Source: an uncultured virus (IMG/VR IMGVR_UViG_3300025407_001324) (Duplodnaviria > Heunggongvirae > Uroviricota > Caudoviricetes). From it: 64,000 bases of DNA. Of this stretch, positions 34,570 through 41,862 are shown in pieces. A model generated the notes under the pieces. It did not search any database and was not told the DNA's origin. It saw only the letters and a list, made by a program, of their open reading frames with translations. Location: IMG/VR virus record IMGVR_UViG_3300025407_001324; one strand, 5' to 3'. Position 1 is the stretch's first letter, and every line of letters begins with the position of its first letter. The position numbers and the translations under genes are program-made.

Positions 34570-35360
34570 ACTCGATTTCGCTCCCAAAGTTTTTGCCAAT
34601 CTTTGACAAAGAAAGATATGTCTCTTTCAGCACCTAAATGTATTGTGTGTGTGCCCAAGGGCATTAACATTTTAACATCAGGTTTATTCCAAACTGTACT
34701 TAAACTACTGCCTTCCCATGAAACATCATCTGAGCCAATTTTCAATAGCTTATCAAAGCCATCTCGGTATTTGGTAATCAATGATTTGGCGACTAAAAAA
34801 GATTCTTGTGTGTACCAAGTGGTTCTATAGTAACGGTCAGGCCCGGGAAGTACTATGCAAGGCCTTACATATACGTGGTTAAATGGATTTTCAGGATGTG
34901 GGTACATCTGATTAAAATCTTGGGGGAATATTCCTATACTCATACTAGTATCAAGACTAACAAAATATTCATAAGCAGCAATCATAAGTTTAATGCTGTC
35001 AGGATAGTGCAAGTAGTCATCTTCCACTATATAGACCAATTCATTTTCGGGCAACCGGTGAATATAATCGTAGGCCTGTTTAACTGAGTATCTTGATTTT
35101 TGTTTACCATTGAGACCAGTTTGATCTCGTTCGGGTAGTAAATCAAATGTTGTGCCCTTGGGAGCAATAGTTTGTATTTTATCAACTGTTTCTGCACTTG
35201 AATAATCGTCTACTATGTGCAATTGAAAATCTACTTTGGATTTTTCTAAACTTCTACTCAGAGAATTCAGGCATCGCCATACACACTCATTTTTAGGTAC
35301 GATACGATCGCTTTGTAAACTTGTACGATCACAAGTGCGTAAAACAACATTTAATTTCAT
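34566..35360 (-). CDS. GT-A fold glycosyltransferase
   Basis: IVDDYSS, YIVEDDYLH. Confidence 0.75.
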   Translation of the reverse strand: MKLNVVLRTCDRTSLQSDRIVPKNECVWRCLNSLSRSLEKSKVDFQLHIVDDYSSAETVDKIQTIAPKGTTFDLLPERDQTGLNGKQKSRYSVKQAYDYIHRLPENELVYIVEDDYLHYPDSIKLMIAAYEYFVSLDTSMSIGIFPQDFNQMYPHPENPFNHVYVRPCIVLPGPDRYYRTTWYTQESFLVAKSLITKYRDGFDKLLKIGSDDVSWEGSSLSTVWNKPDVKMLMPLGTHTIHLGAERDISFFVKDWQKLWERNRV

Positions 35361-35380
35361 TATATATTTACACAGGTTTA

Positions 35381-35454
35381 TGGCGTCCTGCCAGGGATTC
35401 GAACCCCGACCAACGGTTTTGGAGACCGGTATGCTGCCGTTACACTAGCAAGAC
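35381..35454 (-). tRNA. tRNA-Trp(CCA)
   Basis: Cloverleaf, loop CTCCAAA, encoded CCA. Confidence 0.9.
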
Positions 35455-35459
35455 TTACT

Positions 35460-35535
35460 TGGTGCATCGTGAGAGACTCGAACCAGTATCGCTCTCCGTG
35501 TAAAGGAGACGTATCACCTCTCTACGCACCCAGGC
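35460..35535 (-). tRNA. Chimeric tRNA-Val(TAC), likely defective
   Basis: Anticodon arm intact, but the acceptor and T stems do not pair. Confidence 0.6.
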
Positions 35536-35968
35536 TCTTATATTCTCTCAAATACTGATTACGCTTTGTAATCTTCTTGTATCTGCTTCCTTTACCTTTA
35601 CTGCCAAAATTTTCTGTTTGAGTATGGCAGTTTGGGCAAAGTAATCTTAAATTCATTGGATAGTTGTTATCACTATCACCGTCTATGTGATCTAATTGTA
35701 GCACCAGAGACTTGTTATTCCAAATACTTTCTTGTCCACATTCGAAACACTTTTCTCCAAACTTTTCTATTAAGTATTTTTTTAGAGAAGGTGATCCTCC
35801 CGGAACCTCACCTTTTTCGATTCTATCTATAGTTTCGTTTTCCCATTTGTATTGTCCTTGGCACACATTATTACAAAATTTATTAATTTTGCTATGTCCC
35901 CACAGGTTTTCTTTATTACAATATAGGCAACTATATTTTCTGTTGCTTCCTTTTATTCCACTTGGCAT
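35522..35968 (-). CDS. HNH (homing) endonuclease
   Basis: CFECG...LQLDHIDGDSDNN...NLRLLCPNCH; GGAGG RBS. Confidence 0.9.
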   Translation of the reverse strand: MPSGIKGSNRKYSCLYCNKENLWGHSKINKFCNNVCQGQYKWENETIDRIEKGEVPGGSPSLKKYLIEKFGEKCFECGQESIWNNKSLVLQLDHIDGDSDNNYPMNLRLLCPNCHTQTENFGSKGKGSRYKKITKRNQYLREYKSLGA

Positions 35969-36011
35969 AGTATAGACCTCCACATATATTTAGCATAGGT
36001 CTATGTTTTTA

Positions 36012-36032
36012 TACCAACTGAGTTAACGATGC
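36012..36032 (-). pseudogene. Orphan 5' fragment of a tRNA
   Basis: GCATCGTTAACTCAGTTGGTA; its GCATCGT pairs with ACGATGC at the 3' end of the chimeric tRNA. Confidence 0.75.
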
Positions 36033-36036
36033 AATT

Positions 36037-36110
36037 TGGAGCGGGATACCAGAATCGAACTGGTCACTGGACCTTGGCAAGGTTCTGTTTTACCAATAAA
36101 CTAATCCCGC
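36037..36110 (-). tRNA. tRNA-Gly(GCC)
   Basis: Cloverleaf, loop TTGCCAA, CCA. Confidence 0.9.
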
Positions 36111-36118
36111 AACTAACT

Positions 36119-36193
36119 TGGTGCCCAATGTCTGAATCGAACAGACGACCTACCGCTTACAAGGCGGTTGCTCTACCTCTGAGCTAATCGGGC
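36119..36193 (-). tRNA. tRNA-Thr(TGT)
   Basis: Loop CTTGTAA, CCA. Confidence 0.9.
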
Positions 36194-36206
36194 AAAAACT
36201 ATACAT

Positions 36207-36298
36207 TGGCGGAAACGGTGAGATTCGAACTCACGGTACATATTACTACGTACGACAGGTTAGCAACCTGCTGCCTTCGGCCACTCGGCCACGTTTCC
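36207..36298 (-). tRNA. tRNA-Ser(GCT)
   Basis: Long variable arm, loop TTGCTAA, G73. Confidence 0.9.
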
Positions 36299-36349
36299 GA
36301 ATTCTGTGTATAATTTTTTCTTTACTTTGCTTATGTTAGTATATGCTAT

Positions 36350-36378
36350 ATTATATAGTCAACACAGACCTGTGTCAA
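36350..36378 (-). promoter_or_regulatory. sigma70 promoter inside the tRNA array
   Basis: TTGACA-N17-TATAAT. Confidence 0.75.
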
Positions 36379-36386
36379 CTGTTTCT

Positions 36387-36478
36387 TGGCGGAAGTGGTG
36401 AGATTCGAACTCACGGAACACTTGCGTGCTCGATAGTTTTTAAGACTGTTGCAATCAACCGGACTCTACCACACTTCC
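36387..36478 (-). tRNA. Ser-type tRNA body with anticodon TAA
   Basis: GGAAGTG acceptor, G73, long variable arm; loop CTTAAAA. Confidence 0.85.
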
Positions 36479-36483
36479 TGATT

Positions 36484-36563
36484 TGGTGCCCCCACTCAGA
36501 TTCGAACTGAGACAGATTACTCCCTTTTGAGGAGAGTGACTTTACCAATTTGTCTATGGGGGT
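36484..36563 (-). tRNA. tRNA-Leu(CAA)
   Basis: Loop CTCAAAA, A73, short variable region. Confidence 0.85.
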
Positions 36564-36575
36564 ATAAATATTTTT

Positions 36576-36740
36576 GTGAGAACTTACGATAATCTAACAC
36601 CAAGCGGCCTACATTTCCACTTGTCTTACAATGACGGTATATGTTGTGTTATGGTACAAGATATCTACGACAACACTTACTTTGAATTACAGTATTTCAG
36701 TGATATCAATAAAGCACTACGGTTTGTAAATAATCTTTGA
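36576..36740 (+). CDS. 54-aa hypothetical protein antisense to the tRNA array
   Basis: GTG 5 nt after TATAAATA; fills the gap between two tRNAs. Confidence 0.6.
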   Translation: MRTYDNLTPSGLHFHLSYNDGICCVMVQDIYDNTYFELQYFSDINKALRFVNNL

Positions 36741-36741
36741 T

Positions 36742-36816
36742 TGGTCCGGCGTAGAGGAATCGAACCTCTATTGATAACTTAGAAGGTTACTGTTCTATCC
36801 ATTGAACTAACGCCAG
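36742..36816 (-). tRNA. tRNA-Arg(TCT)
   Basis: Loop CTTCTAA, CCA. Confidence 0.9.
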
Positions 36817-36823
36817 TATATAA

Positions 36824-37110
36824 TGGTGCGAGTACCCGGAATCGAACCGGGATGGGATTTCTCCCGACAGATTTTCTTACCACTATAGTTTTCACTACCC
36901 TTACAGTTTGTGGTCTGGACTATACCTTAACCATTGCTTACGCTTTAGGTTCCTGCCGTCTAGTCTCTACACGTTCCCTTTTGGGCTTCGCTCGGTATTA
37001 GCATTTTACAGCTTTCACCGAATTTGACAGGTTCTACTCTTATCGTTTCCAATAAGGCACTCAAATTTTACTCTTAAGTCTGTTGCGTCTACCTATTTCG
37101 CCATACTCGC
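36824..37110 (-). tRNA. tRNA-Leu(TAA) interrupted by a group I intron
   Basis: Exons 37110-37076 and 36875-36824 join to give ACAGA-CTTAAAA-TCTGT. Confidence 0.9.
36876..37075 (-). ncRNA. Group I intron (200 nt, no ORF)
   Basis: Inserted after U34, ends in G; P/Q/R/S-like AAATTCGGTGAA, AATACCGAGC, GTAGAGACTAGACGG, AAGGTATAGTCC. Confidence 0.9.
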
Positions 37111-37118
37111 ATTTACTG

Positions 37119-37203
37119 TGGTGCGGGCGGTGAGACTCGAACTCACACACCTTACGGTAATGGCTTCTAAGACCATCTCGGCTACCAATTACGACACGCC
37201 CGC
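37119..37203 (-). tRNA. tRNA-Leu(TAG)
   Basis: Loop CTTAGAA, variable arm, A73. Confidence 0.9.
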
Positions 37204-37236
37204 AATTTCTTCACATACTATATATAGCATAATATT

Positions 37237-37310
37237 TGGCAGGCCCACTAGGAATCGAACCTAGGATAGCAGAATCAAAATCTGTTGTGATACCATTTCA
37301 CTATGAGCCA
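37237..37310 (-). tRNA. tRNA-Gln(TTG)
   Basis: Loop TTTTGAT, CCA. Confidence 0.9.
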
Positions 37311-37316
37311 ACAATT

Positions 37317-37392
37317 TGGTGGTAATAAGTAGAATCGAACTACTGACAGGCGGCGTATGAAGCCACTGCTCTACCAACTGAGCTATATTACC
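37317..37392 (-). tRNA. tRNA-CAT (elongator Met or Ile2)
   Basis: Loop TTCATAC, paired 1:72. Confidence 0.85.
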
Positions 37393-37453
37393 ATATAGAA
37401 ACACACCCCCCGCGGACTTTTCACTCCCATTTGGTTACGAATGTGTTTTTATA

Positions 37454-37529
37454 TGGTAGGACCGCCGAGATTCGAACTCGGGACCAATAGATTAAAAGTC
37501 TACTGCTCTACCAACTGAGCTACGATCCT
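37454..37529 (-). tRNA. tRNA-Lys(TTT)
   Basis: Loop CTTTTAA, CCA. Confidence 0.9.
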
Positions 37530-37652
37530 TTTGCTGTTTTCTTGTCTACGAATTGCTTTATTGCTTTTCGTATGACTACCCGCTTTCTTAAATAGTGCCA
37601 GCTTCACGAAGGGGTTACGTGGAGCGGCGATCGGTTTCAATGTTATCTTCAT
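37500..37652 (-). CDS. 50-aa basic protein ending inside tRNA-Lys
   Basis: AGGA RBS; MKITLKPIAAPRNPFVKLALFKKAGSHTKSNKAIRRQENSKRIVAQLVEQ. Confidence 0.65.
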   Translation of the reverse strand: MKITLKPIAAPRNPFVKLALFKKAGSHTKSNKAIRRQENSKRIVAQLVEQ

Positions 37653-37669
37653 TTGATTTTCCTAAAAAT

Positions 37670-37744
37670 TGGTAGCCACGGTTGGGAACGATCCAACGAC
37701 CCTTCGCTTATCAAGCGAATGCTCTACCACTGAGCTACGCGGCT
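37670..37744 (-). tRNA. tRNA-Ile(GAT)
   Basis: Loop TTGATAA; atypical T-loop ATCGTTC. Confidence 0.85.
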
Positions 37745-37757
37745 AAATTAAACAGTT

Positions 37758-37834
37758 TGGTCGGCCTTGACGGAGTCGAACCGCCAACCGCTGGTTTCGA
37801 AGACCAGAACTCTATCCAGTTGAGCTAAAGGCCG
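37758..37834 (-). tRNA. tRNA-Arg(TCG)
   Basis: Loop CTTCGAA, CCA. Confidence 0.9.
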
Positions 37835-37842
37835 AGAGTATC

Positions 37843-38220
37843 TTAGACTTTTTCATATCCCAAGTCTACTCTTTCGCTATAGTAGCCGTTTGATTCACCT
37901 AACCATCTTACATCTACATAACCCTTGCGAGTAGCAAACTTGTAAAATGTCCAAGTATAACTTTCGTATGCTTCAAAGTCAGCAGGAGTTTCTCCGTCGA
38001 CTTCTTCGGCTACTACCAATGGAGCACCTTCCAAATCACTCAAGTCACCTACAATGTCTTCAATCCCAACTGTTTCGCAACAGTCTTGCATATGAAAGAA
38101 AACATAACGGTCTACATCGTTTTCAAAGGTCAATGTGTTTTCACTGGCAGTTACTTTGGTAAAAGCTTTACCTACCATATCTGCAATTTTAGCAGCTGCG
38201 TGATAATCATAATAGTTCAT
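37843..38220 (-). CDS. Hypothetical phage protein
   Basis: HMQDCCE...WTFYKFAT.KG.V..RWLGESNGYYSE; AGGA RBS. Confidence 0.8.
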   Translation of the reverse strand: MNYYDYHAAAKIADMVGKAFTKVTASENTLTFENDVDRYVFFHMQDCCETVGIEDIVGDLSDLEGAPLVVAEEVDGETPADFEAYESYTWTFYKFATRKGYVDVRWLGESNGYYSERVDLGYEKV

Positions 38221-38242
38221 TATGTTTCCTTTCTTTTTAATT

Positions 38243-38329
38243 TGGTGGATGAGGTTGGACTTGAACCAACAATGCCATTACGACGGAAGATTTACAGTCT
38301 CCTGGGGTTACCAATTTTCCTACACATCC
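38243..38329 (-). tRNA. tRNA-Tyr(GTA)
   Basis: Loop CTGTAAA, variable arm. Confidence 0.9.
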
Positions 38330-38337
38330 AAAATACC

Positions 38338-38412
38338 TGGTAGAGCGTACGGGAATCGAACCCGTCTTACCAACGTGAAAGGCTGATGTCCTAACCAATA
38401 GACGAACGCTCC
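38338..38412 (-). tRNA. tRNA-Glu(TTC)
   Basis: Loop CTTTCAC, CCA. Confidence 0.9.
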
Positions 38413-38422
38413 AAAAAAAAGC

Positions 38423-38497
38423 TGGTGGAGGATAGGAGATTCGAACTCCTGATTGAAGCTTGCAAAGCTACCGTGTTACCAACTATACCAATCCCCC
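38423..38497 (-). tRNA. tRNA-Ala(TGC)
   Basis: G3:U70, loop TTTGCAA. Confidence 0.9.
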
Positions 38498-38502
38498 GCA
38501 AA

Positions 38503-38570
38503 TGGCGTCCCTGTAGGAGTTTCACCTACTCACTGCCCAGAGTTGCGAACTCTGCGTGGATTCCCAGGAC
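38503..38570 (-). ncRNA. D-armless tRNA-like RNA
   Basis: Acceptor-like stem, T-like arm GTAGG-TGAAACT-CCTAC, CCA end, no D arm. Confidence 0.6.
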
Positions 38571-38577
38571 ATAAACT

Positions 38578-38654
38578 TGGCGGAATGTACGGGACTCGAA
38601 CCCGTGGCCTCCGACGTGACAGGCCGGCGATCTAACCAACTGAGCTAACATTCC
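38578..38654 (-). tRNA. tRNA-Asp(GTC)
   Basis: Loop CTGTCAC, G73. Confidence 0.9.
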
Positions 38655-38695
38655 AACTTTTATTTTCTTAACTTGTTTCTATTATAGCAGAAACA

Positions 38696-38722
38696 AATAA
38701 CCCGCACAACCGGCGGGTTATT
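38696..38722. other. Hairpin inside the tRNA array, beside an extended -10 (TGCTATAAT, 38681-38689)
   Basis: AATAACCCGC...GCGGGTTATT inverted repeat. Confidence 0.55.
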
Positions 38723-38744
38723 GAATGTTGTATTAAAACAACAG

Positions 38745-38822
38745 TGGAGGAACGGGAGGGATTTGAACCCCCGGTTTTAGGGATTTGCAATCCCTTGCAT
38801 TGGGCCGCTCTGCCACCGTTCC
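38745..38822 (-). tRNA. tRNA-Cys(GCA)
   Basis: Loop TTGCAAA, U73. Confidence 0.9.
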
Positions 38823-38826
38823 AATT

Positions 38827-38902
38827 TGGTTGCGGGAGGAGGAATCGAACCTACCATCTTAGAGCTTATGAGACTCCAGTGCGACCACTACACTTTCCCG
38901 CG
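38827..38902 (-). tRNA. Initiator-like tRNA-Met(CAT)
   Basis: C1xA72 mismatch, loop CTCATAA. Confidence 0.85.
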
Positions 38903-38914
38903 ATAATATGATAT

Positions 38915-39364
38915 TTAACTGTTAGTTATTAATTTAAGAAACTCTTGACTGCCAATGGCATTCCACCCACCGTCGATTGTATAGTACAAATTTGGAATAT
39001 TACCAACGGTGTATTCCATGAATAACCATGATAACACCGTAGCATCCATTTTCTTGCCAGCTTCTGTTATTTCCCACCAGTCAATTCCATTTTTAGATCT
39101 TCCGGTTATGATAATATTGGACAGATTTGGTTTCATCCATTCTGGAATATGATCATTGATTAACCACTGACAATGATATGTTTGACATGGATCCTCGGGT
39201 CGAGAATCATAAACAGTACAACCGTCGGCACCTAGATAGTGGCATTTTCTTCCCTTCCAATACGAATGTCCAAGAGCAGAACCAGCTAGCCATCCTTCAC
39301 AGCAAGCAGTACAACCGTTACACGATCTATCTGCTGATACTATTGGGATATTAATTGGTATCAT
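38915..39364 (-). CDS. Cys-cluster (YkgJ-like) protein
   Basis: CNGCTACC...CHYL...CTVYDSRP..C..Y.C.W. Confidence 0.7.
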   Translation of the reverse strand: MIPINIPIVSADRSCNGCTACCEGWLAGSALGHSYWKGRKCHYLGADGCTVYDSRPEDPCQTYHCQWLINDHIPEWMKPNLSNIIITGRSKNGIDWWEITEAGKKMDATVLSWLFMEYTVGNIPNLYYTIDGGWNAIGSQEFLKLITNS

Positions 39365-39398
39365 AATTTTTATATTCGATTTTTCAGGAAGGACCTAA

Positions 39399-39668
39399 TT
39401 AGGCTGTTCGTTTAACTAAATGATAGCCAAACTGTGTTTGTACTGGACCAACAACTTTGCCAATATCTGAACCAAAAGCTGCATCTTCAAACGGCTTGAC
39501 CATCATACCGCGACCAAATGGACCAAGGTCTCCACCATTGGCTTTACTGGGGCAACTGCTGTGTGCTTTTGCTAATTCTGCAAAATCTGCACCGTTGGCG
39601 ATTTTTTCTTGAAGGTCTACTGCTTCTGCTAATGTACTTACTAAAATATGACTTGCTCTTACTTGCAT
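39399..39668 (-). CDS. ppiC: Parvulin peptidyl-prolyl isomerase
   Basis: ASHILV, SSCPS...GGDLG.F, FEDAAF, TQFGYH. Confidence 0.95.
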   Translation of the reverse strand: MQVRASHILVSTLAEAVDLQEKIANGADFAELAKAHSSCPSKANGGDLGPFGRGMMVKPFEDAAFGSDIGKVVGPVQTQFGYHLVKRTA

Positions 39669-39686
39669 TTTATTTCCTTATTGAAT

Positions 39687-39764
39687 TGGTCTCGGATGAG
39701 GGATTTGAACTCTCAGTCTCCTGGTCCCAAACCAGGCGCGATAACCAGATTACGCTAATCCGAG
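39687..39764 (-). tRNA. tRNA-Pro(TGG)
   Basis: Loop TTTGGGA, CCA. Confidence 0.9.
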
Positions 39765-39772
39765 ATAAACTT

Positions 39773-39846
39773 TGGAGCGGGGTAACAGAATCGAACTGTC
39801 AGCTTTAGCTTGGAAGGCTAAGGTATTACCACTATACGAACCCCGC
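39773..39846 (-). tRNA. tRNA-Gly(TCC)
   Basis: Loop CTTCCAA, U73. Confidence 0.9.
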
Positions 39847-39853
39847 AAATTTT

Positions 39854-39928
39854 TGGCTCCCCAGCGTGGGATCGAACCACGGACCAATTGATTAACAGTC
39901 AACTACTCTGCCGCTGAGCTACTAGGGA
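39854..39928 (-). tRNA. tRNA-Asn(GTT)
   Basis: Loop CTGTTAA, G73. Confidence 0.9.
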
Positions 39929-39936
39929 ACGAAAAC

Positions 39937-40152
39937 TTACTTAACTTTTTTCAAGTACTCTCTGCCTACCAATCCTAATTCGATTTCTTCCAGTGCAGCC
40001 ACAATAGGTGTGCTGGTAGTTACAATTTTAGGTGTCGATCCTCTTCGAATTTCACGAACTCGTTGAGCAGCTACAAGTACTAAATCAAATCTATTGCCGA
40101 TTTTAGCAACACATAGATCTGTATCATTCATAACTCTTGTATCTTTTTTCAT
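39937..40152 (-). CDS. rpoZ: RNA polymerase omega subunit homolog
   Basis: C..KIGNRFDLVLVAAQRVREI...P...ALEEI..G. Confidence 0.85.
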   Translation of the reverse strand: MKKDTRVMNDTDLCVAKIGNRFDLVLVAAQRVREIRRGSTPKIVTTSTPIVAALEEIELGLVGREYLKKVK

Positions 40153-40175
40153 TGGTATTGTGTCCTTAAAAACAT

Positions 40176-40204
40176 ATTATAACAACAAAAATTGAATGTG
40201 TCAA
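40176..40204 (-). promoter_or_regulatory. Consensus sigma70 promoter for rpoZ and tRNAs
   Basis: TTGACA-N17-TATAAT. Confidence 0.8.
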
Positions 40205-40210
40205 GAGTTT

Positions 40211-40390
40211 ATAGTAAAGTTCACTAGTATTTTGTTTCGAACGTCCCGGTCAATGGGAGCCAACGTCTTCACGTTACATATTCATCTAATGAACTTTACT
40301 ATGACAGATTTTTTTATCTACAAGAAGATAAGCCATCCCTGTCTCCGCCCGTTCTAGCTATTTATAGTGTGCTAAGGACCTCGTTTCCTT
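40211..40390 (-). ncRNA. Candidate structured RNA(s)
   Basis: 17-bp closing stem (40211-40227/40286-40302) and two further hairpins at 40303-40381; no ORF. Confidence 0.5.
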
Positions 40391-40403
40391 TTTTTCACTT
40401 TGA

Positions 40404-40556
40404 TTAATCTTTTGATAATTTCTTATCTTTTTCCATAATCTCTTTTAATAAAGCTTCTGCTCGTTTGAGCTTTTCTTCAATTAACTTTGCTCTCTTTTCA
40501 GGAGTCAAAGTATGCTCTTGCAAAAACTTTTGTTGTCTAATTAAATTTTTGTTCAC
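40404..40556 (-). CDS. 50-aa charged helical protein downstream of the attenuator
   Basis: AAGGAG RBS, GTG; MNKNLIRQQKFLQEHTLTPEKRAKLIEEKLKRAEALLKEIMEKDKKLSKD. Confidence 0.7.
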   Translation of the reverse strand: MNKNLIRQQKFLQEHTLTPEKRAKLIEEKLKRAEALLKEIMEKDKKLSKD

Positions 40557-40571
40557 AGTTTTCTCCTTTAC

Positions 40572-40608
40572 AAAAACAAAAACCCCAGGGTTTTTAGTCC
40601 TGGGGTTT
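40572..40608 (-). terminator. Intrinsic terminator of the attenuator
   Basis: AAACCCCAGG-N9-CCTGGGGTTT followed by TTGTTTTT. Confidence 0.85.
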
Positions 40609-40648
40609 AAGTTAAAATACTTTAATAGAATATGTTAACTTAAACCCC
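40602..40648 (-). promoter_or_regulatory. Antiterminator hairpin
   Basis: Perfect 14-bp GGGGTTTAAGTTAA/TTAACTTAAACCCC; overlaps the terminator 5' arm and the leader stop codon. Confidence 0.8.
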
Positions 40649-40778
40649 TGCTTGGTAAACGATCTGAACTATTAATCTCTGTTGCAGATGTCATAGACCA
40701 ATAGGCTACTACGCCACCCAGACTTAGTTTGGGTTGTTGGTTTTGTCTGCACAAATGATTAAAAGTGTTAGTCATCAT
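40635..40778 (-). CDS. 47-aa leader peptide containing all 20 amino acids
   Basis: MMTNTFNHLCRQNQQPKLSLGGVVAYWSMTSATEINSSDRLPSRGLS*. Confidence 0.7.
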   Translation of the reverse strand: MMTNTFNHLCRQNQQPKLSLGGVVAYWSMTSATEINSSDRLPSRGLS

Positions 40779-40785
40779 AGTATCT

Positions 40786-40814
40786 ATTATATTTTATTTA
40801 GTCTTGATTGTCAA
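40786..40814 (-). promoter_or_regulatory. Consensus sigma70 promoter with nested TAAATA
   Basis: TTGACA-N17-TATAAT, 7 nt before the leader ATG. Confidence 0.85.
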
Positions 40815-40855
40815 TGATTTTGGATAAATGGTGGAAAGAATTAAAAGATTATTTG

Positions 40856-40927
40856 TGCGACCTACTGGATTCGAACCAGTCCCGTAAGAATTATGAGTTC
40901 TCGGCACTACCGCTATGCTAAAGTCGC
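40856..40927 (-). tRNA. tRNA-CAT without encoded CCA
   Basis: Cloverleaf, loop CTCATAA; flanks extend the acceptor helix. Confidence 0.8.
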
Positions 40928-40947
40928 ACAAATAATCCTTGTCGGAT

Positions 40948-41862
40948 TTAAGTTACCAGCGCATTAAACTTTTTACTCATCTTAAAAAACATATCTCTGT
41001 CACGTTCAATTAAGATGCAATTTCTATTTCTACGTTCAGCAGCAACACCTGTGCTGCCACTGCCCGCAAATGTATCCAATACCGTGTCGTTTTCATTACT
41101 TAGCAGTTCAATAAAGTACTCTAATAATTCCACTGGCTTTTCAGTTGGATGAATCTTATTCTTTCCCAATCCGCCACTATAAGTGATAGTGTTGGGAATT
41201 ACACATTGTACATTACCTTTATCTCGCTTACGATCACGTAACATTGTTTTTGCTTCTGCCAATGCTTGTGCAAAGATTCGTTCCAAGTTGGCTTCAGCGT
41301 CTGTTTCTTTTGCTAACTTGTAGACAATGCTACTGATTTTATCAGCAGCCGCATAACGCTCAACAATAGTGCCAGGAGCTGCATCTGCATTAAATGTACG
41401 CTTACCTCCGGGTTTGATTCCCCACAGGATATACTCACAAGCACTTACCGGATTTACCTGTCGATTGAATGGAACTGCTGCAGGCTTTTTCCAAGTCCAA
41501 ACACGTTTAGGTTCAAACCCTGCACGCTCCATACTTTTCCACAAGTAACTGACATATTGGTCACTGATGAATACAGCAAAGCTAGCACCTTTACGCAACT
41601 TTGAGAACCACATTTCACTCCAAGAGTCAAGTTGACTTAGAAATTCATCGTGCTCAACATCATCCCAATTTTCAGCAAAGTCTTTGCTGAAGTTTTGATT
41701 GTGTATTGTAGTTTTGTTTAGGCCAGTGGCTTTGTCAATCCAAACAGGCTCAGCTCCACCACCACTGATATTGTAGGGAGGATCTGTTAACAGTAAGTCA
41801 ATACTAAGATCTGGAATTTCATAGGCGACTTCTATGCAATCACCGTTAATGCGTGTAATCAT
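40948..41862 (-). CDS. Beta-class N6A/N4C DNA methyltransferase
   Basis: TDPPY, HPTEKP, DTFAGSGSTG; perfect TTGACA-N17-TATAAT at 41869-41897. Confidence 0.9.
   Translation of the reverse strand: MITRINGDCIEVAYEIPDLSIDLLLTDPPYNISGGGAEPVWIDKATGLNKTTIHNQNFSKDFAENWDDVEHDEFLSQLDSWSEMWFSKLRKGASFAVFISDQYVSYLWKSMERAGFEPKRVWTWKKPAAVPFNRQVNPVSACEYILWGIKPGGKRTFNADAAPGTIVERYAAADKISSIVYKLAKETDAEANLERIFAQALAEAKTMLRDRKRDKGNVQCVIPNTITYSGGLGKNKIHPTEKPVELLEYFIELLSNENDTVLDTFAGSGSTGVAAERRNRNCILIERDRDMFFKMSKKFNALVT

Follow-up and report, generated by a model that had tools for sequence, protein, structure and literature searches.

A candidate ribosome-mediated attenuator with an all-20-amino-acid leader peptide upstream of tRNA arrays in uncultured phages

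A leader ORF and two overlapping hairpins precede a viral tRNA array

We analysed a stretch of 64,000 nucleotides (nt) from an uncultured virus of the Caudoviricetes (IMG/VR record IMGVR_UViG_3300025407_001324), hereafter the window, and concentrated on an element on its minus strand in which a promoter, a short leader open reading frame (ORF) and two overlapping hairpins precede an array of transfer RNA (tRNA) genes (Table 1). The virus, a myovirus, carries genes for tail sheath, terminase and fibres, and its terminase is closest (55% identity) to those of PA5oct-like Pseudomonas jumbo phages. The tRNA genes of phages have a research history of decades, and today they are linked to codon supply and to the evasion of defences that target tRNAs; to our knowledge, the control of their expression is hardly described. 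A preliminary description of the window had interpreted the element as an attenuator that senses the shortage of any charged tRNA.

The promoter scores 12 out of 12 against TTGACA-17-TATAAT and is one of four perfect matches between positions 35000 and 42000, all on the strand of the genes. Only 7 nt (AGATACT) separate its −10 box from the ATG of the leader ORF at 40778. The 33 distinct codons of the ORF cover all 20 amino acids and include four for Leu, four for Ser and three for Arg. The promoter, the spacing and the composition of the ORF given in the preliminary description all held on recounting. All 20 amino acids occur in 13 of 1456 windows of 47 residues from the phage's own long ORFs (~0.9%), and at least 33 codons are used in 3.6% of 1428 windows of 47 codons. 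Among ATG-initiated ORFs of 35–65 codons in the six frames of the window and 72 loci, 29 of 1464 (2%) contain all 20. The comparison with random 47-codon windows that had been suggested thus marks the leader as unusual; taken singly, its composition is not decisive. Pfam returned only a sub-threshold match of the leader peptide to EF_assoc_1 (16.7 bits against a cut-off of 29.1).

The end of the ORF forms part of a long hairpin, the putative antiterminator. The segment GGGGTTTAAGTTAA (40648–40635), with the stop codon at its end, is a perfect inverted repeat of 40615–40602, so that the stop codon (40637–40635) lies within the 5′ strand of this hairpin. The last four bases of the hairpin, CCCC (40605–40602), are also the first four bases of the stem of a predicted intrinsic terminator whose T-run extends to 40572. 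The preliminary description had claimed exactly this 14-bp pairing and its overlap with the 5′ arm of the terminator, and both were confirmed. In the minimum-free-energy fold of the element, the 14-bp hairpin with five further inner pairs is favoured over the terminator. A 91-nt piece folds with −29.2 kcal/mol (z = −3.3) and the 216-nt transcript with −62 kcal/mol (z = −4.25). A separate structured domain inside the ORF is closed by a pairing, CCAA(C):(A)TTGG, in which TGG is the leader's single Trp codon.

The architecture is conserved in uncultured viruses

We collected relatives of the element in three sets. An exact scan for the terminator pattern matched at least 120 viral stretches and yielded 121 elements with at least 260 nt of upstream sequence, encoding 88 distinct peptides (set 1). 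Searched in 185,579 genomes of prokaryote species, this pattern gave no match. A scan with a 16-nt motif internal to the ORF matched at least 119 stretches, including many chance matches. The canonical terminator was present in 32, and a further 64 (56 distinct) belonged to the family but carried other terminators; these encode 55 distinct peptides, all of them absent from set 1 (set 2). A profile of 40 diverse leaders, run against 5.8 billion proteins, returned 81 clusters, of which 79 were new (set 3); all 81 are unnamed or called 'hypothetical protein' and have no Pfam domains. BLAST of loci reached through neighbouring genes gave two diverged copies (L013 and L040) with identical spacing. 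The architecture is present in well over 200 uncultured viral contigs. In blastn searches of cultured phages, the window element gave matches to tRNA only and a main-clade element gave none. The PA5oct-like jumbo phages, the nearest cultured relatives by terminase, have tandem promoter repeats and no leader ORF or attenuator before their 12 tRNAs; in Pseudomonas phage PA5oct, a duplicated promoter-bearing repeat of ~65 nt lies directly upstream of the tRNA array (NC_071039.1 267240–267560).

The order and spacing of the parts vary little. The stop codon lies 23–37 nt upstream of the terminator in all 121 elements of set 1, and a consensus-like promoter (TTGACA-like/TAnnnT) occupies the same place in 120 of them. 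Start signals take two forms. In 55 elements the start is leaderless, 6–10 nt past the −10 box, and in 65 there is a 5′ untranslated region (UTR), often with a 5′ hairpin, and a Shine–Dalgarno-like motif 4–18 nt before the ATG. A leaderless start without a Shine–Dalgarno sequence, as noted earlier for the window, is therefore correct for this virus and is not a trait of the family. All 92 distinct sequences keep the leader frame open. Stops number 3.6 and 4.0 on average in the other two frames, of which one is open in none of the 92 and the other in one. Downstream of the terminator, same-strand tRNA genes were found in all 70 loci with at least 1500 nt of downstream sequence, mostly starting 200–800 nt away. 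Most loci have no tRNA genes within 3 kb upstream; a subset that includes the window has one to three (Met, Leu and others).

The encoded peptides are mostly 42–52 residues long, with lengths down to 35. Mean column identity in their alignment is 29%, with no invariant column, although Trp is present in nearly all. Entropies at the three codon positions are 1.27, 1.22 and 1.27, and this equality indicates that ordinary selection at the protein level does not act on the peptide sequence. Two blocks, coding for AKQxGFMPxYW and NDRTPE, are kept at the nucleotide level including synonymous sites. The first largely coincides with an RNA hairpin, which in 86 of 90 distinct members closes on the Trp codon through pairing with an upstream CCA(A); the inner helices differ in sequence. 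This hairpin does not overlap the antiterminator and, by analogy with the 1:2 hairpin of trp, may be a candidate pause or timing hairpin for RNA polymerase. The second block (AATGATCGNACACCAGAG) keeps most of its synonymous sites across the family; the version in the window has diverged to SDRLPS (around 40665–40650, minus strand). We found no pairing partner for the NDRTPE-coding block.

Leader peptides appear to be selected for complete coverage

All 20 amino acids are present in 75 of the 88 distinct peptides of set 1, 48 of the 55 of set 2 and 69 of the 79 of set 3, or 192 of 220 when pooled. For the 88 peptides of set 1, the number expected is 2.8 under the pooled composition of the family (maximum of 10 in 2000 simulations), 8.8 under a perfectly uniform composition (maximum of 20) and 0.9 under the composition of the window proteome. 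Shuffling residues within alignment columns gave 12.6 ± 3.0 complete peptides, with a maximum of 23. Complete coverage is specific to the leader frame, with 80 of 92 distinct coding sequences compared with 0, 1, 5, 0 and 1 of 92 in the other five frames of the same DNA, and is therefore not accounted for by base composition or RNA structure. Nor is it accounted for by relatedness, since complete coverage was found in 42 of 55 single-linkage clusters at 70% identity and 12 of 18 at 50%. Coverage persists below 50% peptide identity, the behaviour of diverged homologues that the preliminary description had named as support for its interpretation.

The rare residues of the leader relocate instead of disappearing. 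Tyr directly precedes Trp in 59 peptides and Asp-Arg in 127, never both, and all 17 peptides with Tyr at neither site have it elsewhere. Single Cys, His and Phe residues occur at 24, 14 and 17 different positions relative to Trp, respectively. There are no codon runs; Cys, Trp, His, Tyr and Asp each occur exactly once in 61–83 of the 88 peptides of set 1. Coverage is also completed early. The redundant tail that follows the twentieth amino acid has a mean length of 9.4 residues compared with 4.5 ± 0.45 after shuffling of residue order (maximum of 6.2), and it reaches at least 7 residues in 63 of 75 peptides compared with 19.9 expected. The completing codon lies at least 11 nt upstream of the 5′ arm of the antiterminator in 49 of 75 leaders, 6–10 nt upstream in 14 and closer or inside it in 12. 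With the set of 20 complete before the hairpin overlap, the codons at which a stalled ribosome would mask the antiterminator carry little unique information. Together, these comparisons indicate that the all-20 property of the leaders is under selection.

Coverage is also seen at the level of tRNAs. Given random synonymous choice and each leader's own residue counts, both Leu codon boxes were used in 79 of 85 leaders (63.8 ± 3.7 expected; maximum of 78), both Ser boxes in 88 of 92 (72.2 ± 3.9; maximum of 86) and both Arg boxes in 70 of 80 (46.2 ± 4.2; maximum of 60). The two boxes of each of these amino acids are read by different isoacceptors, so this excess fits the sensing of tRNAs and not only of amino acids.

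A shared base covaries with two alternative partners

In all 77 distinct family regions, the stretch from the 5′ arm of the antiterminator to the shared CCCC folds into one hairpin, which averages 18.6 pairs over 56 nt and −23.0 kcal/mol. The stop codon is placed on the 5′ strand of this hairpin. Compared with shuffles of the interior, the mean z-score is −5.1, and all 77 regions lie below −2. When 5′ and 3′ halves were swapped between members, ~5 kcal/mol was lost, and the matched halves were better in 75 of 77 cases. The triplets adjoining the GGGG/CCCC pairs covary (TCC:GGA in 65, TCT:AGA in 6, TTT:AAA in the window, CTT:AAG, TTC:GAA and others). The terminator stems of set 2, which was gathered without reference to the terminator and hence independently of the search pattern, also show compensatory variants (CCCTAGG:CCTAGGG, CCCTGG:CCAGGG, CCCCTG:CAGGGG and CCCTAGAA:TTCTAGGG, among others).

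The fourth base of the shared segment belongs to both stems, and we tabulated its partners, using 136 of 144 distinct sequences for the full pair tables. Where it is C, the antiterminator partner is G in 88 of 94 sequences. With T at this position, 43 of 45 antiterminator partners are A and two are G, and the terminator partner is A in 21 of 48 and G, as a wobble pair, in 27 of 48. A single base that covaries with two mutually exclusive partners matches what an attenuator predicts, and it bears out the earlier expectation that relatives would carry compensatory hairpin changes. In equilibrium folds of the 3′ region, the CCCC pairs upstream in 61 of 91 sequences and downstream in 30 of 91; when the RNA was masked through the stop codon plus 15 nt, to mimic a ribosome at the stop, the terminator formed in 91 of 91. 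Given a plain MAFFT alignment of 89 full elements, RNAalifold found nothing but the invariant terminator; as the interior was not structurally aligned, we counted pairs by alignment-free and anchored methods instead.

The 9-nt terminator loop (A-Y-TAAA-M-AC; 40598–40590 on the minus strand of the window) is similar even where the stems have changed, a conservation beyond what a terminator loop needs.

Small genes, a structured RNA and tRNA genes lie downstream

The first gene beyond the terminator of the window encodes a Lys/Glu-rich product without a Pfam or PHROG family. Similarly placed small ORFs follow the terminator in many relatives; in others, a structured RNA follows directly. This RNA, which we call RNA-X, shows compensatory changes at 9 of 10 consensus pairs and contains hairpins such as AGGAAACGAGGTCCT / AGGGAACGCGACCCT and a long-range helix. 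Of 75 loci, 61 carry its sequence motif within 700 nt downstream of the terminator, and in these related loci the RNA lies 50–250 nt from the terminator. From its position, RNA-X would be the first or second product of read-through. Rfam had no match for the leader, the switch or RNA-X.

Twenty-two tRNA genes called by ARAGORN and one intron-split tRNA-Leu lie downstream of the leader. The intron-split gene, missed by ARAGORN, exactly occupies the gap between tRNA-Leu(UAG) and tRNA-Arg(UCU); its intron matches Rfam Intron_gpI at 36894–37085 with 58.9 bits. Placing the element at the head of the tRNA array, as had been done before, is thus right for these 23 genes and not for one tRNA with anticodon CAU, which lies upstream of the leader promoter and hence outside the control of the attenuator. 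We found no support for the idea that this gene is an initiator tRNA kept from control; inspection by eye showed a 1:72 end that is paired and an anticodon stem lacking three consecutive G:C pairs. Genes for an RNA polymerase omega-like protein and a PpiC-type peptidyl-prolyl isomerase are embedded among the tRNA genes, and omega-like genes recur in 33 viral loci. We also compared the leader codons of the window with the tRNAs of its array and found no support for a specific match between them: 35 of 47 (74%) are decodable under strict wobble rules compared with 70% of 16,037 long-ORF codons.

Table 1 Features of the element and its surroundings in the window
Feature	Position	Strand	Basis
Promoter: TTGACA 40814–40809, 17-nt spacer, TATAAT 40791–40786	40786–40814	−	Sequence; promoter scan 12/12
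Leader ORF, 47 sense codons and TAA, leaderless	40635–40778	−	Open in 92/92 distinct family sequences
Structured domain in leader ORF, closed by CCAA(C):(A)TTGG	40698–40740	−	Minimum-free-energy fold of transcript
Putative antiterminator hairpin, 14 perfect pairs (40648–40635 with 40615–40602) and 5 inner pairs	40602–40648	−	Sequence and folding
Intrinsic terminator: CCCCAGG 40605–40599, 9-nt loop, CCTGGGG 40589–40583, then TTTTTGTTTTT	40572–40605	−	Sequence
Predicted first read-through gene: 50-amino-acid Lys/Glu-rich ORF, GTG start 16 nt past T-run, AAAGGAG before start	40404–40556	−	Sequence
Conserved structured RNA (RNA-X), about 120 nt	~40296–40399	−	Downstream of terminator, upstream of promoter 40204
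Downstream unit: internal promoters, omega-like gene, PpiC-type gene, 149-amino-acid gene, tRNAs	35381–40204	−	Gene, tRNA and promoter scans
RNA polymerase omega-like gene	39937–40152	−	Pfam RNA_pol_Rpb6, E = 2.6e-13
PpiC-type peptidyl-prolyl isomerase gene	39399–39668	−	E = 1.9e-22
tRNA-Leu (anticodon UAA, long variable arm), group I intron in anticodon loop	36822–37112	−	Rfam Intron_gpI
tRNA, anticodon CAU, upstream of leader promoter	40855–40927	−	tRNA scan
Perfect promoters	41897–41869, 40814–40786, 40204–40176, 36378–36350	−	Promoter scan; within 7 kb

The element as a probable ribosome-mediated attenuator

We consider it likely that the element acts as a ribosome-mediated attenuator of transcription. 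It would gate the passage of polymerase from a strong early promoter into the tRNA array, and selection would keep in its leader every amino acid as well as the two codon boxes each of Leu, Ser and Arg. The preliminary description had arrived at an attenuator from the window alone, and the coverage of the homologues, the covariation of the hairpins and the tRNA genes downstream in every one of the 70 loci support that interpretation. RNA polymerase would initiate at the consensus promoter and a ribosome on the leader ORF. If all codons were decoded promptly, the ribosome would reach the stop codon, inside the 5′ strand of the antiterminator, and hold that hairpin open; the CCCC would then be free, the terminator would fold and transcription would end at the T-run. 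If a ribosome waited within about the first three quarters of the ORF, or if there were none, the antiterminator would fold once transcribed and sequester the CCCC, and polymerase would read into the small ORF, the structured RNA, the omega-like gene and the tRNA genes. Output would thus rise whenever any charged tRNA became limiting. Translation of the ORF, the timing of ribosome and polymerase and the response itself are steps that we infer from the sequence features, their conservation, the bias in composition and the covariation.

Several observations weigh against this interpretation. The lack of a third-position excess in the leader ORF could equally mean that it is not translated, which is opposed only by the integrity of the ORF, its start signals and its composition. 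Complete coverage alone does not account for the nucleotide conservation of the two blocks; the hairpin largely explains the first, and the NDRTPE-coding block is left unexplained. One or more amino acids, mostly a single one and most commonly Cys, Val, Leu or Phe, are missing from 28 of the 220 peptides. Because 30 of the 91 equilibrium folds already prefer the terminator, the outcome must hinge on kinetics. We found no anti-antiterminator of the trp 1:2 type overlapping the antiterminator, so an untranslated RNA would read through. In the window, the perfect internal promoters starting at 40204 and 36378, both of which had been listed as a caveat in the preliminary description, bypass the attenuator for much of the array. 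The leader codons of the window are no better matched to the array tRNAs than are those of phage genes, and ARAGORN found no tRNA-Phe, tRNA-His, tRNA-Val or Ser-UCN tRNA there, although the leader has those codons. A sensor with such codons would read the total tRNA pool, host tRNAs included.

Some of these points would suit an attenuator that reports the global status of translation or its coupling to transcription (ribosome availability, host shut-off or elongation speed), the diverse leader being a representative sample of codons. The near-equal decodability of leader and gene codons and the predicted read-through of untranslated RNA are both compatible with it, and a study of mycobacterial whiB7 describes upstream ORFs (uORFs) that respond to general translation stress (PMC10274678). 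Nevertheless, we regard this alternative as unlikely, because a representative sample has no need of complete coverage, which is found in 192 of 220 leaders compared with ~1% of phage protein windows. The near-complete coverage, the relocation of rare single residues without loss and the excess of leaders with both Leu, Ser and Arg boxes suggest that each amino acid or isoacceptor is selected for in its own right.

A terminated leader RNA of ~210 nt, or its peptide, might act in trans, besides or instead of control in cis. For the trp attenuator of Sinorhizobium, the RNA rnTrpL and the peptide peTrpL are reportedly trans-acting. The perfect promoter and an efficient terminator would make such a leader RNA abundant, and a function in trans could account for the otherwise unexplained conservation of the NDRTPE-coding block. 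No complementary target was found, nor was one searched for. As a function in trans leaves the all-20 coverage unexplained, we think it improbable.

We give very little weight to the ORF being a functional micro-protein, with the hairpin and terminator as the end of its transcript and the tRNA genes transcribed independently. The nearly universal Trp and the AKQ.G and NDRTPE residues are well conserved, and gene callers predicted the ORF in 81 database clusters. However, third positions are not relaxed, the conserved blocks coincide with RNA structure, mean column identity is 29% without any invariant column, and the peptide has no Pfam or PHROG family. Neither the composition bias nor the relocation of residues makes sense for a folded peptide. 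Nor would a micro-protein predict a shared base that covaries with two alternative partners, or same-strand tRNA genes that always follow.

Least credible is an RNA-only switch that binds tRNA, a protein or a metabolite, with the ORF incidental: the strong conserved structure, including the ORF-internal domain and a second structured RNA downstream, would suit it, but it is at odds with a frame open in 92 of 92 sequences against 3.6–4.0 stops in the others, with frame-specific coverage, with start signals kept in two forms and with the absence of a T-box or other Rfam match.

Comparison with known leader-controlled systems

Classical attenuator leaders of enterobacteria (trp, his, leu, thr, ilv and pheA) contain runs of one to three amino acids. 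The element shares with them, as judged from sequence, a promoter-proximal short ORF with a plausible start, an intervening terminator, an antiterminator that shares bases with it and a stop codon placed such that ribosome position would decide between the hairpins. Unlike those leaders, it has no codon runs and includes each of the 20 amino acids, usually one or two times; its regulatory codons are not concentrated on the amino acid(s) of a regulated pathway, which sets the family apart. It is phage-borne, the regulated genes would be tRNA genes, small genes and an RNA instead of biosynthetic enzymes, and no anti-antiterminator like the 1:2 hairpin of trp was found in it. The Rfam leader families (Trp, His, Leu, Thr and Phe) and T-box gave no match at E ≤ 1 in the window (35000–41500) or at E ≤ 10 in a relative (L076, 2780–3260). 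T-box riboswitches bind one specific uncharged tRNA directly and need no ORF. The element resembles them in that read-through of a terminator before translation-related genes would be tied to tRNA charging, and differs in its conserved ORF.

The closest functional precedent for an all-20 leader appears to be the uORF of the mycobacterial whiB7 attenuator. According to the report on it (PMC10274678), the amino-acid content of this uORF sets which starvations are sensed; in M. smegmatis it encodes every amino acid except Cys. The same report describes the uORF as Ala-rich (25–40%), with a coverage that varies among species, and as controlling a transcription factor. Both systems couple a longer ORF of diverse composition to a terminator and an antiterminator, and whiB7, as described there, senses the depletion of many amino acids. 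By analogy, leader composition would also set what is sensed in the phage element. The phage leaders differ in that full coverage is itself conserved and composition is even, with Ala making up 6% of pooled residues. They also differ in their target, a viral tRNA array with omega-like and PpiC-type genes, and they do not control a WhiB7 regulator. No sequence relationship to the whiB7 uORF is apparent, and Pfam and Rfam gave no family match. Full-text literature searches found no paper on leader-peptide control of tRNA genes or of phage tRNA arrays.

Discussion

What the leader might serve in the infected cell is a more tentative matter. Possibly, it is a checklist of all tRNA decoding families that senses the depletion or cleavage of any single host tRNA, whether the cause is an anticodon nuclease, another defence against tRNAs, decay induced by the phage or starvation. 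In response, the phage would switch on its own array as a viral tRNA homeostat and counter-defence sensor, with RNA-X as part of the response. The link to host anticodon nucleases is one that we infer and do not observe.

Regulation of this kind is already known; what is new is a leader peptide that appears to be selected for complete coverage of amino acids and isoacceptors and that would gate a viral tRNA array. As a mark of selection that acts on composition and not on sequence, this pattern, one of each at any place ahead of the hairpin, is both clean and unusual. If the interpretation is correct, the element would be a compact natural sensor of any tRNA shortage, of ~250 nt and with a consensus sigma-70 promoter, which may be useful as a tool. 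It would also widen the logic of attenuation from one pathway and one amino acid to the whole decoding apparatus.

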